IMG/VR virus record: IMGVR_UViG_3300023174_007844
Coordinates: 1-64,000 of that record
Reading direction: 5' to 3' (one strand)
Origin: a virus
Length of the DNA stretch: 64,000 bases
Position numbers and translations under genes: made by a program. Under the pieces are notes generated by a model. The model ran no database searches, had not been told where the DNA came from, and saw only the letters and a list, made by a program, of their open reading frames with translations. Below, in pieces: positions 2,952-41,788 of this stretch (position 1 is its first letter; the number at the start of each line of letters is the position of its first letter).

Positions 2952-3908
2952 CTAAAAGTCCTCATCGAATGAAATTTGTTCTTGAACTTCGCCAACACCA
3001 CTCTTAACATAGTCAGCAACTCTCTTCTCGAAGAAGTTGGTCTTGTTTTGCAAAGCAATATTAGCCATAAAGTCAAAAGGGTTCTCTGTATTATAGACTT
3101 TTCCTACACCTAAATCCATCAATAGGCGGTCAGAAACATACTCTAAATATTGCTTCATTAATTCAGAATTCATACCAATCAAAGAAACAGGCAATGCTTC
3201 AGTGATAAATTCTTTTTCAATAGTTAGAGCAGAGTCAATAATTTCAAGAATACGCTCACGAGAAAGTTTGTTCTCGATGTGGTTCTTGTATAGATGAACT
3301 GCAAAATCTGTATGCAATCCTTCATCACGAGAAATCAATTCGTTAGAGAAAGAAAGACCTGGCATCAAACCACGCTTCTTGAGCCAGAAGATACTGCAGA
3401 AAGAACCAGAGAAGAAAATGCCTTCTACAGCAGCAAACGCAATTAGACGCTCTACAAAAGACTCAGAACCAATCCACTTAAGAGCCCATTCTGCTTTCTT
3501 TTGAACAGCTGGAACTGTATCAATTGCATTGAAAAGATGGTTTTGCTCTTCTTTGTCTTTGATGTAAGTGTCAATGAGAAGGGAGTATGTCTCGGAGTGA
3601 ATATTTTCCATCATAATCTGGAAACCATAGAAGAATTTAGCTTCTGTGTACTGTACTTCAGCAACAAAATTTTCTGCTAAGTTTTCATTTACAATTCCAT
3701 CGGATGCAGCAAAGAATGCCAAAACATGCTTGACAAAATGCTGTTCTCCTTCATTCAATTTTTCCCAGTCAGTAAGGTCCTGAGCTAAGTCAATTTCTTC
3801 AGCAGTCCAGAAAACTTGCTGTGCTTTTTTGTAATAATTCCAAATGTCGTGATGTTCAATTGGGAATAAAACAAAACGATTTTTATTCTCTTGAAGTATT
3901 TTTTCCAT
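2952..3908 (-). CDS. nrdB: Class Ia ribonucleotide reductase beta subunit
   Basis: [52 protein letters not shown]; ATG 3908 preferred over TTG 3920. Confidence 0.98.
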
Positions 3909-3984
3909 ATTTTTTGACAATAAAAAATACCTGAAAGAAATCTATCAGATATTTTTTATCCCTTCCTTTAATTAGTATGAGGTA

Positions 3985-4431: not shown

Positions 4432-4818
4432 TTACAATGCAAACTTAATATCAATAGCAAAAATGCGTGTTGAAATTCCCTTTGTTTTCTTGCCAGCCAC
4501 TTCAGCATTGTATTCTGATTGACGACAAACTAAAACTGATCCATTAGTTAAGCTTTCAACTTCTCTGGATGCTAGTCTAAAAGCAGTCATTGTAGAATTC
4601 AATGCAGTGGGGCCAACTGATAAAATTCTAACATATTCATGGTCTTTTAGCACATGTAAAATACTACGACTTAAGCCAACAGGATCGGTGGGTCTTTTTG
4701 TAGGATCTTCCGCATTTGGATCTCCTCCTCTAGCTTTCAATATCCTTGGGTCATTTGAATTATTCTTTGACTTATCATTTGTGGCAATAGTGCTCACAGG
4801 TTCTTCAATTTTATCCAT
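4432..4818 (-). CDS. SpoVS-like (Alba-fold) protein
   Basis: ILK...TDPVGLSRSILHVLKDHEYVRILSVGPTALNSTMTAFRLA...LVC...GKKTKGI parallels the SpoVS pattern LKV...PxxVAGALAxVL...xQAIGAGALNQAVKAVAIA...LIC. Confidence 0.7.
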   Translation of the reverse strand: MDKIEEPVSTIATNDKSKNNSNDPRILKARGGDPNAEDPTKRPTDPVGLSRSILHVLKDHEYVRILSVGPTALNSTMTAFRLASREVESLTNGSVLVCRQSEYNAEVAGKKTKGISTRIFAIDIKFAL

Positions 4819-4820
4819 TT

Positions 4821-5795
4821 TTAGTTTTCCTCAATTCCAATAAGAGACATTTTCGTCTTAATATTTTCTACAGCTTTATTAAACTCTGAAGCAGTGCAAC
4901 CATATAGTTTTGAATCGTATTTTAGCTTTGAAGAGCCATTCAAGATTGTTGCAATAATTTTATTTTCAACTTCATCTAAATCTAAATTCATTAGATTATT
5001 AATTTTGTTGTCATCTTTTATACTATCATAATAACAAACATCTTCATTGTCATCTTCTTCAGACATGTAAACACTTAAAGCTCTAGGTGAAACAGTTTGA
5101 TAATCAGGATATAGCTCATTGAATTTTTGAAAAAGCATAGATGAATGCTTAGACAAAATATGCTTCTTTATGATTGCTGTACGCTTCTTGACTATACAAG
5201 TTTCGCACCCACCATCTTTTTTAGTTTCACAATTTTCATCACATTCATAACTTCTTGGCATTTTATGAGACTTGCAGAAATTACATCTTTCAAGTTCTTC
5301 TAAAATTACACCAGTGTTTAAGAGATGATCCCAAAGAATATGATGATGATGAACTAGGATGTGAGTGGAAAGAGGATTTACCCATTTTTCACATATAGGG
5401 CATTTCTGGGATGGATTTCTTTTACCAGCATTGTCAGCCTTAACTAAATTGATATAGTTGTGTTGCAATGCACCGATAAAATAGTTTTTGAATTCCCCGC
5501 TTCCTCCATAACGAGACACTTTTCTCGTATTTCGGGGTTTCCAATTTGATAAAACATTGCAAAAAATCTTTATATAATCTGATGCAAAATCTTCTTGTGA
5601 ATCATACAAATAATGGTATTGATTCCACCATTCTTGCATGTGTAAATAAGGCGGATATAACTTACATACTTCTTTGTAGTCACGATCTATCCGCCATTTA
5701 TTGCCCGACAGTAAAGCTTCTTGATATTTTAGGATGGCCTTCTCTAAATTTTCTTGAGTCCTTATCTTTGCTTGTTTTGTAATATCCTCGTTCAC
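4821..5795 (-). CDS. Divergent sigma70-family sigma factor with Zn-finger insertion
   Basis: Region-2-like QEDFASDYIKIFCNVLSNWKP...GEFKNYFIGALQHNYINLVK; Cys/His-rich middle; region-3.2-like LSVYMSEEDDNEDVCYYDSIKD; region-4-like LDEVENKII...GSS...LYGCTASEFNKAVENIKTKM. Confidence 0.6.
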   Translation of the reverse strand: MNEDITKQAKIRTQENLEKAILKYQEALLSGNKWRIDRDYKEVCKLYPPYLHMQEWWNQYHYLYDSQEDFASDYIKIFCNVLSNWKPRNTRKVSRYGGSGEFKNYFIGALQHNYINLVKADNAGKRNPSQKCPICEKWVNPLSTHILVHHHHILWDHLLNTGVILEELERCNFCKSHKMPRSYECDENCETKKDGGCETCIVKKRTAIIKKHILSKHSSMLFQKFNELYPDYQTVSPRALSVYMSEEDDNEDVCYYDSIKDDNKINNLMNLDLDEVENKIIATILNGSSKLKYDSKLYGCTASEFNKAVENIKTKMSLIGIEEN

Positions 5796-5849
5796 TTAAG
5801 ATTCCCTCGTTGATATTACAATTATAACTACTGTTTTTAAAATTAGAAA

Positions 5850-7643
5850 TCACCCAGAATGTTTTATATCTTCAAGAATCATTACTAAATTATTATTTCC
5901 TGACCAATTGTCTAACTCTACAGTGTAAACAACATCAACTTTATCGCCAGGTTGGAATTCATTGCAAATATAGCCTCGTCTCCAAGCATTAGCAGGAACC
6001 CAAGTTTTTTCACCATTTGACAATTTTAATTTAGCGTGTTTGCCTTGGGTTAGTGGCTTAGCTTCAACAAGAGTCATATTCTTGGTGATGAAAATTGGAT
6101 TATGATTGCCACTACCAAAAGGAGATATTTTTGAAAGATGAGCATATGTCTTGATATTCAAATCACCAAAAGGCATACGAGCATCAATGTCAATAATTTT
6201 CTCAGAAGATGGTTCTCCCAATTTATCTTGAGCATAATTATTTAATGCTTCTCTCATTGCTGGAATATTGTCTATAGCAAGTTCAAAACCAGCAGCAAAA
6301 GCATGACCCCCACAAACAGTAGAACCATCTGCTCTTTTCTTGAATAACTTCCAAGCTTCTTCTGACTTGAGAGCATCCAAAATATTAAAATCACGAGTGG
6401 AACGACAAGAACCTTTAGCATATCCATCTTTCTTGAACGAACAAACCAATGAAGGCTTGTTGTACATTTCAGCAATTTTTCCAGCAATCAAACCTATCAA
6501 TCCAGGGTGCCAATCTTCAGCACCAATTATTAATATATGTTCTTTTTCTAAATCAAAATTTTTCTCGACATAATCTATAGCCTGTTGAGTGGCTTTTTCT
6601 TGCTGCTCTTGTCTTTTAGTGTTTGCATTGTTCATCTGTTTGGCAAGATTAGCTGCTGTAATTTCATCTTTAGACAGCAGCAGTGACAAAGCAGTACCAG
6701 CATCAGCAAGTCTACCAATAGCATTAATTCTTGGACCAATTTGAAATCCAATAGTTGTAGGAGTTACATCTTTCACACCAGCAATACGAAGAAGTTCTTT
6801 AATGCCAGGTTTATTACTACTAGAAAGAATTGAACATCCATAATTGACAATCACTCTGTTTTCGTCAATCATTGGAGCAACGTCAGCTACAGTTCCTAAT
6901 GCTGCAAATTCAATCAATTCATCTACAAAATCAAAAACATTTAGTTTACGATATCGAGCCAATCCAAGCATTAATTTAAATGCAATTCCACAGCCAGCCA
7001 AATAGTCAAATGGATAGCGTTGGAAATCATCTGTCTTATGAGATTTAAAATGCTCACCTGGATAAAAAGGATCATCTCTATTTGGGTTTACTACTGCCAT
7101 AGCTTCTGGTAATGATCCATCTTCACTAGGATGATGATGGTCAGTGATAATCAAATCAAGATTTTTCTCTTTTGCATAAGCTCCAGTTTCAAATGCAACA
7201 ATTCCACAGTCAACACTCATAAGAAGAGTTGCACCAGAAGCTAAAGCCTGATCTACAGAATGAATCTTGATATCGTATCCATCTTCCATTCTGTGAGGGA
7301 CTTTGTATTCTATATTGGCTCCCATTTTTTCTAGAGCAGTGACAACAATAGCTGTAGATGTAATACCGTCAACATCATAGTCACCCCATACAAAGATTTT
7401 CTCACCTGTATCTATTGCTTTGCTTATTCTTTTGATAGCAATTTCTGCATCAGGAAGAGTCATTGGATTGTGAAGTTTATTGATCTTAAGGTCAAGAAAT
7501 TGTTCAGCTTTATCCACTGAATCAATTCCACGAGTAAGCATAACTTGGGCTACAGGAATAGGTATTTCAAGTTCATATGCAAGTTCTTTGACATCTTGCA
7601 TACTACAATCTCTCATTTTCCAAACAGTTTCAATTCTATCCAT
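5850..7643 (-). CDS. recJ: ssDNA 5'-3' exonuclease RecJ
   Basis: GDYDVDGITS, VDCG, TDHH, GTVADV, PRINAIGRL, GSCRS, GGHAFAAG, PFGSGN. Confidence 0.97.
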   Translation of the reverse strand: MDRIETVWKMRDCSMQDVKELAYELEIPIPVAQVMLTRGIDSVDKAEQFLDLKINKLHNPMTLPDAEIAIKRISKAIDTGEKIFVWGDYDVDGITSTAIVVTALEKMGANIEYKVPHRMEDGYDIKIHSVDQALASGATLLMSVDCGIVAFETGAYAKEKNLDLIITDHHHPSEDGSLPEAMAVVNPNRDDPFYPGEHFKSHKTDDFQRYPFDYLAGCGIAFKLMLGLARYRKLNVFDFVDELIEFAALGTVADVAPMIDENRVIVNYGCSILSSSNKPGIKELLRIAGVKDVTPTTIGFQIGPRINAIGRLADAGTALSLLLSKDEITAANLAKQMNNANTKRQEQQEKATQQAIDYVEKNFDLEKEHILIIGAEDWHPGLIGLIAGKIAEMYNKPSLVCSFKKDGYAKGSCRSTRDFNILDALKSEEAWKLFKKRADGSTVCGGHAFAAGFELAIDNIPAMREALNNYAQDKLGEPSSEKIIDIDARMPFGDLNIKTYAHLSKISPFGSGNHNPIFITKNMTLVEAKPLTQGKHAKLKLSNGEKTWVPANAWRRGYICNEFQPGDKVDVVYTVELDNWSGNNNLVMILEDIKHSG

Positions 7644-8403
7644 TTTCAGCCCTTATATTTAATGTTTTCTTACCAGAATCAATCATCTTCAAAATAGTTT
7701 CATCAAGAAGAGATATATCATATTTCTGGACAAAATCATCAGGATCCATACCTGGTGGAAGAAATATTCTTATAGCCTTCAATCCCAATTCTTCTATCTT
7801 ATTCACAACTTTTTCTGATGCAATTTTACCAGCATCGTCACCATCCATAAGAACAACTAGATTATCACAGTATCTGGAGGCGAGAGCAATTTGATGATCA
7901 GATATCGCAGTGCCACAAAGAGCCACTACATTTTCTAATCCATTATCATAAAATGAATAAACGTCAAAATATCCCTCTGTCAATATAAGGTAATTCTTTT
8001 GACGTGCCATTGTTTTTGCGATATCAAGAAAGAATAAATTTCTATTCTTTTGATATGGCTCGTTTATCCATTTGCCTTTGTTCCATTTATTGATTTTGTC
8101 AGCACACTTAGCAGGTTCATGCCCATAAAGATCCCAAAATGCTTGTACTGTTTGTTCTTTAAGATCTGGAATTTGTCTACCAGCTAGAGCAATAAAATTA
8201 CCATGAACATCTTTAATTGGAACAATTAATCTGCCTTTTAATAATGGAAATTCATATCTAGAATATGAAGGGCAGAAAGCAATAAGATTATTTTTGACGA
8301 TTTTGTCAGATAAATTTCTAGTTTCAAAATATTCTTGAACAGTTTTATTCTCTTCAAAGTTGCGGAGAAATTGATTATAGTTCAATTCAAAGCTGTTCAT
8401 CAT
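7636..8403 (-). CDS. dnaG: DnaG primase catalytic/TOPRIM module lacking the Zn-binding domain
   Basis: GRLIVPIKD...GR, LTEGYFDV, VALCGTA, MDGDDAG, DPDD; no N-terminal CHC2 finger. Confidence 0.9.
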   Translation of the reverse strand: MMNSFELNYNQFLRNFEENKTVQEYFETRNLSDKIVKNNLIAFCPSYSRYEFPLLKGRLIVPIKDVHGNFIALAGRQIPDLKEQTVQAFWDLYGHEPAKCADKINKWNKGKWINEPYQKNRNLFFLDIAKTMARQKNYLILTEGYFDVYSFYDNGLENVVALCGTAISDHQIALASRYCDNLVVLMDGDDAGKIASEKVVNKIEELGLKAIRIFLPPGMDPDDFVQKYDISLLDETILKMIDSGKKTLNIRAENG

Positions 8404-17077: not shown

Positions 17078-17294
17078 TATTAGATAGATCTTCTAAAATT
17101 TTATTTGCGCCAGACCAGAAGATGTACTTGTAAACATCTTCTTCAGTATATCCTGGATTTTCAGCCAACATAAGCTGATGAATAAAATGAATTTTATTAG
17201 CTAGATTTCCATTGATAAGAATATTCACTGGAATTTCTTCAGGAGCATCATTAAAAGATTGTTTCAATTTTTCAATAATTTCAATGTTGTTCAT
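17049..17294 (-). CDS. Hypothetical protein
   Basis: 81 aa, overlaps both neighbours in the operon. Confidence 0.6.
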   Translation of the reverse strand: MNNIEIIEKLKQSFNDAPEEIPVNILINGNLANKIHFIHQLMLAENPGYTEEDVYKYIFWSGANKILEDLSNNVQNDNPES

Positions 17295-17913
17295 TTAGTT
17301 CTCCCATTTTTATCTTTGCATTCTTAATAAAATTTTTCCAAAGTAGATTTAAATTCTTAAAGTTTTCTTTATGTAAATCTTCATCTATTTGCTTGTAAAC
17401 ATTGTCTGTCCAAGTAATAAAATCAGGATTGTAACTATTTAAGCGTTCATATTTCTTTATTTTTTCCGCAAAAGAAATAAGAAAATCAACTTCAGATAAA
17501 CCACCGGGATAATTACTAGAATTGTTTTCTTTTTCGAGATATTTTTTGATTGTATTACTAACTTCTCTCATCAGATATTTGACATCAAAATCAACAGTTT
17601 CTATATCAATTTTAGCAAATACAGAGAGTTTATGTATAGCTTCTACAAAATTCAAACCTTCAACATCTTGTACTAGTTGAATCAAATCTCCAGTGGCTCC
17701 GCATCCAAAGCAATTATAGGTATTTGTTTTAGTATTGACACCAAAAGAAGGATTGCCGTCATCGTGATCTGGCATAGGACATCTTGTGTTTGCCCAATCA
17801 GTGTGCTTAGATATTATGAAGTCAGAATCATATTCCGACTCCATAAATTCCATAATATCAATACTTTTCACTAGATTATCAATAAATTGCCTAGTGATTG
17901 TAGTTTTATTCAT
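17281..17913 (-). CDS. Stand-alone CHC2 zinc-finger protein (primase Zn-binding domain)
   Basis: RCPMPDHDDGNPSFGV...YNCFGCGATGDLIQLVQDVEGLNFVEAI; ATG 17913 overlaps the helicase stop. Confidence 0.88.
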   Translation of the reverse strand: MNKTTITRQFIDNLVKSIDIMEFMESEYDSDFIISKHTDWANTRCPMPDHDDGNPSFGVNTKTNTYNCFGCGATGDLIQLVQDVEGLNFVEAIHKLSVFAKIDIETVDFDVKYLMREVSNTIKKYLEKENNSSNYPGGLSEVDFLISFAEKIKKYERLNSYNPDFITWTDNVYKQIDEDLHKENFKNLNLLWKNFIKNAKIKMGELNEQH

Positions 17914-19501
17914 AAAGCATCCAATCAGACACAGAAAGTTCTCTATCATCATCGTAGTTTATAGGTTCAATTTCTTCTTCGTCATCTAAAATTGCTTGAA
18001 CATTTCCATTTTCATCACGAACAACTGGATTACGTTTGATAGGAGTTTTGCCGTCAGGACGATCTGATGTGGGAACTTCCTTAACAACTGTATTTCCAGT
18101 TGCAACACCATGTAATGCCAATATTTGTTGCTGCTCTTCTTCTTCCAATTCTGATACTTTATTGTATTCTCTGTTCATGCGAATTGGAAACGGGTTGAAC
18201 CAAGCATCACGCATTTTAACTGGATGAAGAATACAATATCCATGTTCCCGATTGGGCTCCATAGCAATAGCATAGGTACAAAGGTGCATGAGGTTTTGTC
18301 CACCAGATGCAGCAGCCTGATCATAAGACATAAATTTTTTGTCATCTTTAGACTTGCGTGAATCTCTAATTGTCTCACGGTTTATCTGTTGAGCAGTGAG
18401 AACTGGAATATTGTATCTTTTGGCAAGCAAGAATAAACCCTTAACTGCTTGTGATTGATTCTCCCAATCTTTTGCTCCATTGACAGCTTTACGCACGGTC
18501 ATATTTCCAATATAGTCAACTACAAGAAGATCTGGTTTGCCTTTTGTAGCAATCAATTCTCTAATTTTTTGATCAATATATTCTGGTGTAGGATCTTCCA
18601 TATTGACATCATATTCAAAATATGGGCCATCTTCTTGACCTTTTAAACCATCATAAATTGTCTTCATTTCATCTGGAGAAAGATCAGTGCCTTTGATTTG
18701 GTCATAAGGAATCTCAAAACTTAATGAAACGTGACGAAGCAAACAAAGCCAAGAGTTCATTTCAAAAGAAAGATACAAAACTTTTTTCTTGCACACTTTA
18801 TTTGCATGAAGAGCAGAATTTAAAAGCATTACACTCTTACCACCAGAAGAAGGTGCCAAGAAAACAATAATTTGTCCAGGCATCCATCCAAAAGTTTTAG
18901 AATCTATATTGCTTATTCCACATTCAATACCCTTAAATAATTCAGGTTGAGTAAGACGTTTTTCGTACTCTAATTTGAAGAAATCAGCACTATTAGATAC
19001 ATCAAAATTTTGTATTTCAGAAAATTTTTCAGACAGTTCTTCCTGAATATCATCAAGGTCTTTCTGGATAGCTTCTACAGTTTTAGATAGATCACCATTA
19101 GCAAGAAGACTATTAGATGATTCAAAAGTTTTAGTAAGTGTGCGTAGACCTTTATTCTTTTTAAGCAATGTAGTGACTTCGTAAAAATCATTCTCATTAA
19201 AGTCAAAATTCTCAATCTCATCCCAAAGAGAAATATATTTTCTACGGGTGAAATCTTTGATATTGCTTTCATTCAATGATGATTCAAGTACAAAGCCTGT
19301 TAATAAACTTCCACCACTTCTTTCCCAATATTTCATTATAAAATCGTACATTTTTTGGGTGTAAGAAGAGGTGTCATTTGAATCTATATGAACAAAATGA
19401 TCCCTAGTAATTTGACGTGCAAGAGCCTTATCCATACACTTTTGACTTTTAGTGATGGATGATAGGAACATTATTTCTAGTGAACGTTGATCTAGTTTCA
19501 T
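17906..19501 (-). CDS. dnaB: DnaB-like replicative helicase
   Basis: Walker A APSSGGKS, YLSFEM, LLVVDYI, PVLTAQQINR, KMRD; ATGA coupling at 19498-19501. Confidence 0.9.
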   Translation of the reverse strand: MKLDQRSLEIMFLSSITKSQKCMDKALARQITRDHFVHIDSNDTSSYTQKMYDFIMKYWERSGGSLLTGFVLESSLNESNIKDFTRRKYISLWDEIENFDFNENDFYEVTTLLKKNKGLRTLTKTFESSNSLLANGDLSKTVEAIQKDLDDIQEELSEKFSEIQNFDVSNSADFFKLEYEKRLTQPELFKGIECGISNIDSKTFGWMPGQIIVFLAPSSGGKSVMLLNSALHANKVCKKKVLYLSFEMNSWLCLLRHVSLSFEIPYDQIKGTDLSPDEMKTIYDGLKGQEDGPYFEYDVNMEDPTPEYIDQKIRELIATKGKPDLLVVDYIGNMTVRKAVNGAKDWENQSQAVKGLFLLAKRYNIPVLTAQQINRETIRDSRKSKDDKKFMSYDQAAASGGQNLMHLCTYAIAMEPNREHGYCILHPVKMRDAWFNPFPIRMNREYNKVSELEEEEQQQILALHGVATGNTVVKEVPTSDRPDGKTPIKRNPVVRDENGNVQAILDDEEEIEPINYDDDRELSVSDWMLYE

Positions 19502-41546: not shown

Positions 41547-41741
41547 TTATCGCTCATTTTCTTCTTTATTGGCTATATCGTAATAATTCATACCATTACG
41601 TAAGCACCAAACTGAAAGAGCGCCTAAAAGAAAATCTGATGGCAATGTCCCAGTGGTTTTCCATACATGAGTTATAGCTACCAGAGCAACTACATACCAA
41701 AGTAAACCTGCAGCCTTGTTGTTGTCAATTTTATCTTGCAT
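41547..41741 (-). CDS. Small membrane protein
   Basis: Two hydrophobic segments; TATAAT-N7-ATG. Confidence 0.65.
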   Translation of the reverse strand: MQDKIDNNKAAGLLWYVVALVAITHVWKTTGTLPSDFLLGALSVWCLRNGMNYYDIANKEENER

Positions 41742-41758
41742 AATATTTATTATATCAT

Positions 41759-41788
41759 AAAAAAAGAAGGCTGTAAAGCCTTCTTTTT
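41759..41788. terminator. Bidirectional-type terminator
   Basis: AAAAAAGAAGGCT-gtaa-AGCCTTCTTTTT. Confidence 0.85.

Follow-up and report, generated by a model that had tools for sequence, protein, structure and literature searches.

How does a large phage tell the RNA polymerase (RNAP) of its host which promoters to use, and can a sigma factor carry zinc fingers in the place of one of its own domains? This question is raised by an open reading frame (ORF) at positions 4821-5795 (minus strand) of a 64,000-nucleotide stretch of viral DNA, positions 1 to 64,000 of the IMG/VR record IMGVR_UViG_3300023174_007844, which we refer to as the window. The ORF encodes a zinc-finger sigma-like protein of 324 residues (GTG start codon, stop codon at 4821-4823) and originates from an uncultured freshwater jumbo phage. 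An initial annotation, made from the sequence alone, had described the protein as a sigma factor with a multi-zinc-finger domain inserted between region 2 and regions 3.2 and 4, and every sequence motif quoted there was found in the ORF. We propose that the protein is a divergent factor of the sigma-70 family, in which a zinc-finger module takes the position of sigma domain 3 (sigma3), and that it redirects the host RNAP; we give this reading a probability of about 60%. All bacteria select their promoters by means of sigma factors, whose plan, consisting of domain 2 (sigma2), with or without sigma3, and domain 4 (sigma4), is very stable. The order sigma2, zinc module, acidic linker and sigma4 is supported in our analysis by predicted folds and by Pfam matches of distant relatives.

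Domain architecture of the protein

The N-terminal domain (residues 1-125; 5421-5795; like all parts of the protein on the minus strand) is a helical domain resembling sigma2, as judged from an AlphaFold2 model, from structural matches and from the alignment of the relative P0141 with Pfam Sigma70_r2. The full-length model, computed from the family alignment, has a mean predicted local distance difference test score (pLDDT) of 80.8 and shows helices at residues 2-30, 33-46, 53-63, 67-84 and 102-123 of this domain. Structural matching was performed with VIA-align, which is independent of Foldseek, against 48,161 PDB representatives. Residues 12-125 were matched best by SigB (Z 8.6, root-mean-square deviation (rmsd) 2.8, 90 residues), followed by SigI6 (Z 7.9), SigW (7.4) and domain 2 of SigA (7.2). 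More than ten sigma2 domains came after these four, and the further matches included pro-sigmaK, SigK, SigC, T4 gp55 and the promoter-specificity subunit of AR9. Full-length sigma32, sigmaS and AlgU could be superposed over residues 12 to approximately 320. The sigma2 fold is present in the predicted structure, at middling Z values.

The block EDF...WKP...GEFKNYF...NYINLVK, on which region 2 had been recognised in the initial annotation, spans residues 68-119. A helix equivalent to regions 2.1/2.2 (residues 66-85, SQEDF...W85; 5541-5600) is placed by the register of the hhalign alignment described below and by a co-fold interface at residues 65-83, and it contains the invariant F70. It is followed by a conserved basic loop with a net charge of +4 (residues 86-101; 5493-5540), an expansion of the 2.2-2.3 loop by 11 residues, in which P87, R91, S94, G98 and G100 do not vary among close family members. 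The subsequent helix, equivalent to regions 2.3/2.4 (residues 102-123; 5427-5492), keeps F102, Y105, F106, L110, N116 and K119 in the same close relatives and leads into a KRNP motif (residues 125-128).

The target protein itself did not match Sigma70_r2 at E ≤ 1, and its connection to the sigma families by sequence runs through relatives. P0141, a secure family member (E 1e-28 to the family profile), reached 23.9 bits against Sigma70_r2 (PF04542; cut-off 24, E 3.7e-5), and this match falls in the alignment columns of target residues 66-120. P0168 is homologous over the N-terminal domain, both fingers and the linker (hhalign 98%, E 2e-13), and its C-terminal domain gave a weak, collinear match to Sigma70_r4_2 (E 0.0097). 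A third bridge is P0167, a cousin lacking the zinc sites: its N-terminal domain is homologous by hhalign (96.8%, E 2e-10), and the protein has a Sigma70_r2 match at E 1e-3. When the N-domain profile was aligned by hhalign with the canonical sigma factors of the clade, the register was as expected, pairing EDF with DV-Q of region 2.1/2.2, WKP with YDP and F102 with the Phe of region 2.3; the same alignment displays the basic insert of 11 residues in the 2.2-2.3 loop. As a side observation, P0167 and two similar cousins (P0170 and P0175) are metagenomic proteins of 310-325 residues, which have the sigma2-like N-terminal domain including a basic A-x-KR-x-P motif after helix 2.4. They are devoid of the CxxC/HxxxxH sites, their C-terminal half is different and very basic, and they do not occur in deposited phage genomes.

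At the other end of the protein, residues 237-260 (5016-5087) form an acidic linker, which is predicted to be disordered (pLDDT below 50) and resembles region 3.2 by position only. The acidic stretch noted in the initial annotation is present here, with a net charge of -5. Residues 261-324 (4824-5015) constitute a sigma4-like helix-turn-helix (HTH) domain of four helices with a net charge of -3. Since the Z values of the full model fell in the warning range of VIA-align, the C-terminal 69 residues were additionally folded alone (pLDDT 78 for the domain-only model). All of the top 25 VIA-align matches of this domain were sigma region 4, over 56-68 of the 69 residues, led by sigmaH (Z 6.5, rmsd 3.3, 66 residues), region 4 of SigA (6.2) and SigL (6.1); region 4 of sigmaE on -35 DNA matched at Z 6.0, and generic HTH proteins ranked beneath. 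Foldseek likewise placed region 4 of SigA first, at E 1.8, and returned nothing for this domain at E ≤ 0.001, while the target sequence had no match to Pfam Sigma70_r4 or r4_2. Sigma factors are thus the best structural matches of either flanking domain, each independently of the other. Region 4 had been regarded as eroded; this view needs to be revised in part, as the sigma4 fold is complete, whereas the domain is acidic and a reading of the -35 element is therefore doubtful.

Two further observations concern this part of the protein. The extreme C-terminus (residues 316-324; 4824-4850) carries the motif S-L-x-G-[IL]-E-[GN], which is conserved across the family and whose Gly is invariant in 23 sequences. 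By analogy to T4 gp55 and gp33, which have a docking peptide for the sliding clamp, one may speculate that this tail docks to a partner such as a sliding clamp. In a distant subfamily (P0135, P0137, P0141, P0144 and P0147-P0149), the sigma4-like domain contains a Cys-rich insert (C-x2-C ... C-P-R; columns ~455-480 of alignment A4), which could be a further metal site.

Between the two domains, a three-helix sigma3 was not found; residues 126-236 (5088-5420) form a dual CCHH module in the position of sigma3, delimited by ligand conservation and by zf-Di19 matches of relatives. Absence of sigma3 is still compatible with the sigma-70 family as a whole, since the sigma factors of extracytoplasmic function (ECF; group 4) lack this domain as well. 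Site 1 (C132-x2-C135-x9-H145-x4-H150; 5346-5402) is invariant and adopts a strand-strand-helix arrangement in the model. Site 2 (C171-x2-C174 ... H212-x4-H217; 5145-5285) has invariant ligands, and its halves are split by an insert of variable length (16-37 residues). Nested in this insert is a lineage-variable Cys4 cluster (C185, C189, C197 and C200; 5196-5246), with four Cys in close relatives and none in the most divergent ones. We judged invariance in a family alignment of 37 sequences spanning down to 22% identity, in which both tandem C-x2-C ... H-x(3-5)-H ligand sets are present throughout and the invariant columns are F70, P230, C132, C135, H145, H150, C171, C174, H212 and H217. The Pfam family zf-Di19 (PF05605) matched 14 of 37 family members at E ≤ 1, of which only P0151 passed the curated cut-off (27.6 bits, cut-off 27.5); the target itself had no match to zf-Di19 at E ≤ 1. 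On these grounds, the module is predicted to bind zinc. The multi-zinc-finger domain of the initial annotation is hence located correctly between sigma2 and sigma4, but the conserved core comprises two CCHH sites instead of four fingers, because the cluster around CDENC and CETC varies between lineages.

The contact expected of a sigma2 domain was addressed by co-folding residues 1-128 (37-row alignment) with residues 230-340 of the Escherichia coli beta-prime subunit. The pair scored 0.80 compared to 0.43 for the best control and passed a mark attained in 58 of 80 cases by solved complexes and in 2 of 110 by mismatched pairs. Three runs shared at least 90% of the contacts, with a partner pLDDT of at least 81. 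The interface is the canonical one, as suggested beforehand for the beta-prime clamp helices: beta-prime 270-298 faces target residues 28-40 and 65-83, the latter being the region-2.2-like helix. As the sigma2-clamp pair is a textbook case with solved structures and the host is a stand-in, this result indicates likeness to a sigma factor and not binding.

Proposed function and competing explanations

Taken together, we consider the protein very probably homologous to the sigma family and judge it somewhat likely to act as a promoter-specificity subunit; core binding, zinc binding, DNA reading, timing and target promoters are inferred. According to the proposed mechanism, the sigma2-like domain would bind the beta-prime clamp helices of the host core via its region-2.2-like helix, while the enlarged basic 2.2-2.3 loop and the 2.3/2.4 helix would handle the -10 region. 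A complete sigma4 fold would sit behind the acidic, region-3.2-like linker. In place of sigma3, the module of ~110 residues with its two CCHH (Di19/C2H2-like) sites may provide additional or substitute contacts to the DNA that lies between -10 and -35, given that sigma4 itself is acidic. In this way, the protein would redirect the host RNAP to one class of phage promoters within a programme of multiple sigma factors. A bolder version, which we regard as possible but rather doubtful, holds that the sigma factor reads DNA with a third head, the dual CCHH module, which recognises the spacer or an extended -10 element or acts in sigma4's stead; alternatively, the module may be a zinc or redox switch that times transcription. 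That the fingers supplement the -35 reading of the acidic sigma4, as suggested in the initial annotation, is a reasonable guess.

Several observations speak against a sigma factor and have to be weighed here. The Z values of 6-8.6 obtained with VIA-align lie in the range in which the tool warns of a mere common helical arrangement. Foldseek returned no match at E ≤ 0.001 when the full model was compared with the PDB and a viral library; its weak PDB and viral lists consist mostly of sigma factors, all with non-significant E-values, and gp300 of Bacillus phage G stands at rank 15 (E 1.1) of the viral fold list. The target matched no family in Pfam or PHROG, and a family profile of 25 sequences retrieved only noise and no sigma factor from the PDB sequences. 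Compared with the canonical sigma factors of the clade, the N-domain profile reached P 7.6e-4 and a probability of only 25% (0.4% in a first run with shallower alignments), and the C-domain profile had no similarity to them in hhalign. The zinc-domain profile found nothing in the same comparison. The target lacks the tryptophan dyad typical of region 2.3 in housekeeping factors, and a net charge of -3 is unusual for a sigma4 domain that reads a -35 element. Finally, E. coli served as a substitute for the host in the co-fold, and the predictor may have reproduced a pair that it had memorised.

Some of these points would equally suit a sigma mimic or regulator, i.e. a sigma-derived protein that docks on the core as competitor or co-factor and does not specify promoters. 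The acidic sigma4 and the non-canonical signature of region 2.3 fit such a role, the phages already have one to four canonical sigma factors, and the docking evidence would be explained equally well by a decoy. Yet residues 86-123, which would face the -10 DNA, rank with the best conserved and most strongly basic parts of the protein, and a pure decoy would need neither property; a complete sigma4 and an invariant zinc module were retained as well, and we thus regard a mimic as unlikely. Might the protein instead be a zinc-finger DNA-binding factor associated with transcription or replication, which makes no contact to the core and regulates the replication and nucleotide module, its sigma-like folds being merely common ones? 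Its gene is strictly embedded among those of DnaE, RecA, primase, RecJ and ribonucleotide reductase (RNR), the zinc fingers are the sole invariant feature across the whole family, the structural Z values are middling and a significant sequence match of the target to sigma factors is missing. Such a factor appears improbable to us, as sigma factors are specifically matched by two separate domains that follow each other in the correct order (in 25 of 25 matches of the C-terminal one), relatives match both Sigma70_r2 and r4_2, and the co-fold exceeds its best control by 0.37 with the canonical interface. Moreover, T4 gene 55 is also located among replication and recombination genes.

A role as promoter-specificity subunit of a divergent multisubunit RNAP encoded by the phage, as known for the non-virion RNAP of AR9, is very improbable. 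The N-terminal domain does match the AR9 subunit (7s01_A; Z 6.5, rmsd 3.6, 103 residues), but beta or beta-prime catalytic domains were not recognisable with Pfam at E ≤ 1 in five near-complete relatives, although very divergent enzymes could escape Pfam, and the canonical sigma factors of these phages point to use of the host core. The phages, which possess several sigma factors but lack recognisable beta or beta-prime domains, therefore appear to steer the host polymerase. Another observation at odds with a sigma2 domain came from the 37-member profile, whose best PDB match is the bromodomain protein TRIM24 (E 4.9e-4, 22.8 bits, residues 37-115), with TRIM33 at E 0.29; this would make the N-terminal domain a bromodomain-like four-helix bundle. 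We rejected this scarcely credible reading. Only these two paralogs matched at E ≤ 10, while many other bromodomains have solved structures, and HMMER aligns the Asn of the TRIM24 motif AEFN, the conserved acetyl-lysine-binding Asn that bromodomains have at the end of helix B, with W85, a residue that close family members never exchange. The family scans contain Sigma70_r2 and not Pfam Bromodomain, the predicted fold prefers sigma2 and the protein ends in a sigma4 domain. No bromodomain was listed among the top 50 structural matches, which does not in itself exclude the fold.

If the preferred reading of a sigma factor with a zinc-finger module holds true, the exchange of sigma3 for two zinc fingers would be a new way to build promoter specificity, and synthetic gene circuits could draw orthogonal parts from it. 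The reading would further help to explain how genes are scheduled in freshwater jumbo phages of ~350 kb, which have several sigma factors and no recognisable RNAP. If the module is indeed a third reading head, its promoter grammar would differ from that of any bacterial or phage sigma factor described. In that case, or if the module is a switch, fingers of the C2H2 type, a hallmark of eukaryotic transcription factors, would work inside a bacterial initiation complex.

Gene family, promoter and genomic neighbourhood

The window comprises the first 64 kb of an 80.4-kb IMG/VR fragment, which is ~22% complete according to CheckV; the genome of the phage should therefore measure roughly 350 kb. A word-indexed search yielded 110 homologs of the protein, all of them unnamed or annotated as 'hypothetical protein', and an exhaustive HMMER profile search of 1.84 billion representatives yielded 68 family representatives. 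In IMG/VR, 35 syntenic loci were found, several of them on contigs of 260-441 kb, and the gene is present in single copy in all five near-complete relatives. Homolog counts, synteny and invariant ligands put the existence of the family far beyond chance. The gene belongs to the single-copy core of a clade of jumbo phages, which are uncultured, live in freshwater and have genomes of 260-441 kb. Several studies of lake and freshwater metagenomes contributed the sequencing runs containing the DNA, and none of the public runs listed is RNA. A tblastn search with the target, P0175, P0151 and P0141 against 50,697 deposited phage genomes gave no match, and a search of the ESM Atlas returned nothing beyond the protein's own viral clusters. 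Since databases only offer 'hypothetical protein' and the deposited phage genomes lack the family, naming it would annotate a core gene of the whole clade.

Directly after the stop codon of RecJ, the gene is preceded by a promoter-like element on the minus strand (5821-5849) composed of a -35 hexamer TTTCTA (5844-5849), a 17-nt spacer and the -10 hexamer TATAAT (5821-5826); a ribosome-binding site GAGGG (5804-5808, minus strand) lies 8 nt upstream of the GTG start. The TATAAT box reported in the initial annotation does exist, but it is located at 5821-5826 and not at 5822-5827, and turned out to be the -10 half of a conserved -35/-10 pair. Relatives with unrelated spacers keep TTTACA or TTGACT-N17-TATAAT or CATAAT, followed by a ribosome-binding site of the GGAG type. 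Our consensus scanner did not list the promoter because the -35 hexamer TTTCTA is below its threshold. As a TTTACA/TTTCTA-N17-TATAAT element is kept upstream of the gene where spacers have diverged, the early expression assumed beforehand is plausible, and judging from the sequence, a sigma70-like promoter probably drives the gene's transcription in the early or middle phase.

The proposal that the protein reads AGG-N18-AGAATA, on the other hand, is not supported: the exact motif is not enriched, and nothing links it to this protein. Exact copies were found twice compared to 0.69 expected, and with one mismatch the count was 30 compared to 22.7 ± 4.6, a marginal excess reached by 4 of 100 shuffles. 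A link to the protein is also unsupported because relatives carry one to four canonical sigma factors, which are equally good candidates. Independent of this, a TATAAT or AGAATA hexamer lies ~6-25 nt before the start codon of many genes, often after a hairpin and a T-run (examples are found upstream of 36723, 41741 (minus strand), 55023, 55336, 58785 and 60193 (minus strand)). Both hexamers are approximately 3-fold enriched in upstream regions (TATAAT 9 compared to 2.5 expected, AGAATA 9 compared to 2.9 expected), and these findings point to leaders that are very short or missing and to no fewer than two classes of -10 element. A perfect TTTACA-N17-TATAAT is present at 41742-41775 (minus strand), 8 nt before an ORF of 64 aa (41547-41741), and is of the same type as the promoter conserved upstream of the target's homologs. 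The -7 motif TAnnTTTG of Bacteroidota is not enriched upstream of genes in the window (1 compared to 2.9 expected).

The gene resides in a module of replication and nucleotide metabolism, which comprises the large and small RNR subunits, an ORF of 147 aa, a SpoVS-like ORF, the target and RecJ and continues past RecJ with the Toprim half of a primase, RecA, a DnaE-type Pol III alpha subunit, the zinc-ribbon half of DnaG and DnaB. The order DnaE, two ORFs, RecA, Toprim, RecJ, target and SpoVS-like ORF is found at all 35 loci, down to 38% identity. The SpoVS-like gene (128 aa; 4432-4818, minus strand; Pfam SpoVS E 0.016; PHROG 35646 'sporulation protein' E 0.002) has a low-complexity N-terminus, is positioned 2 nt downstream of the target and is the directly adjacent downstream gene at each of the 35 loci. 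Its product is usually better conserved than the target and, on the basis of adjacency alone, is a possible partner or co-factor of it. Two separate genes encode the DnaG primase, one for the Toprim/catalytic part (7636-8403, minus strand) and one for the CHC2 zinc ribbon (17281-17952, minus strand); they lie ~9 kb apart and flank RecA and DnaE. The small RNR subunit (2952-3920, minus strand) is 71-76% identical to enzymes of Bacteroidota (Flavobacteriaceae, Flavobacterium and Cytophagales), and nearly all of the 80 best bacterial loci (L045-L124) show this likeness, which in terms of sequence hints at a Flavobacteriia-like host or gene donor.

The five near-complete relatives (316-441 kb) each encode one to four small sigma factors above the Pfam cut-off. 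These canonical proteins (L037-L044 in genomes G001-G005) fall into two size classes of ~192 and ~232 residues, and some are encoded 6-20 kb from the target's homolog. The window has no canonical sigma factor because that side lies beyond the end of the fragment.

Comparison with known systems

Among known proteins, the sigma factors of group 3 (SigB, SigH and sigma32) and the ECF group (SigW, sigmaE and SigK) share with the target a sigma2 N-terminus, a sigma4 C-terminus, a flexible acidic linker before sigma4 and a region-2.2-like helix, which in the target is predicted to lie on the clamp helices. The target differs from them by the lack of a significant sequence match, by a 2.2-2.3 loop that is 11 residues longer and basic, by an acidic sigma4 and by a dual CCHH module of ~110 residues where group 3 has sigma3 and ECF factors have a short linker. 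Phage sigma factors such as T4 gp55, SPO1 gp28/gp34 and the canonical factors of the clade (190-240 residues) are likewise divergent and redirect the host RNAP in a temporal programme. T4 gp55 (7d7d_F) matches the N-terminal domain of the target (Z 6.5, rmsd 3.9, 94 residues); it comprises the sigma2-like part only and needs gp33 and the sliding clamp. The canonical factors of the clade co-occur with the target in the same genomes and have marginal profile similarity to it. To our knowledge, none of these phage proteins has internal zinc fingers.

Phage sigma factors are described as divergent and sometimes equipped with alternative domains (PMC7826278, PMC8999054, PMC5826349), while a survey of jumbo phages reports only minimal and RpoD-like ones (PMC7824862). 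The 'moraphage' paper mentions neither this protein nor zinc or DnaE (PMC12619734). In the literature, we came across no account of a dual CCHH module located between sigma2 and sigma4, and this layout has no database name. Metal-binding Cys/His elements as such do occur in sigma factors, namely in CorE/CorE2, OrbS, ECF52 and Gp17. CorE/CorE2 (ECF238) carry a CxC motif within the linker joining sigma2 and sigma4 and a C-terminal Cys-rich domain (PMC8999054, PMC7826278), and ECF52 (SCO4117) has a C-terminal zinc finger (PMC7826278, PMC8999054, PMC5826349). According to the published descriptions, by which we set them apart from the target, the elements of CorE/CorE2, OrbS and ECF52 consist of short motifs or of extensions at the C-terminus, which serve in metal sensing or as fused anti-sigma parts. 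Gp17 of Bacillus phage vB_BceM-HSE3 is cited as a phage sigma factor with a double zinc-ribbon domain (PMC7826278); by description, its zinc ribbon is annotated in the place of sigma2, whereas the module of the target lies between an intact sigma2 and sigma4. The closest counterpart of the module itself is the dual C2H2-type Pfam family zf-Di19 (PF05605) of plant Di19 proteins, which has the same two tandem CxxC...H-x4-H sites. In the target, the second finger carries a variable insert, in some relatives with a Cys4 cluster of its own, and the module is part of a sigma-like phage protein instead of a eukaryotic factor.

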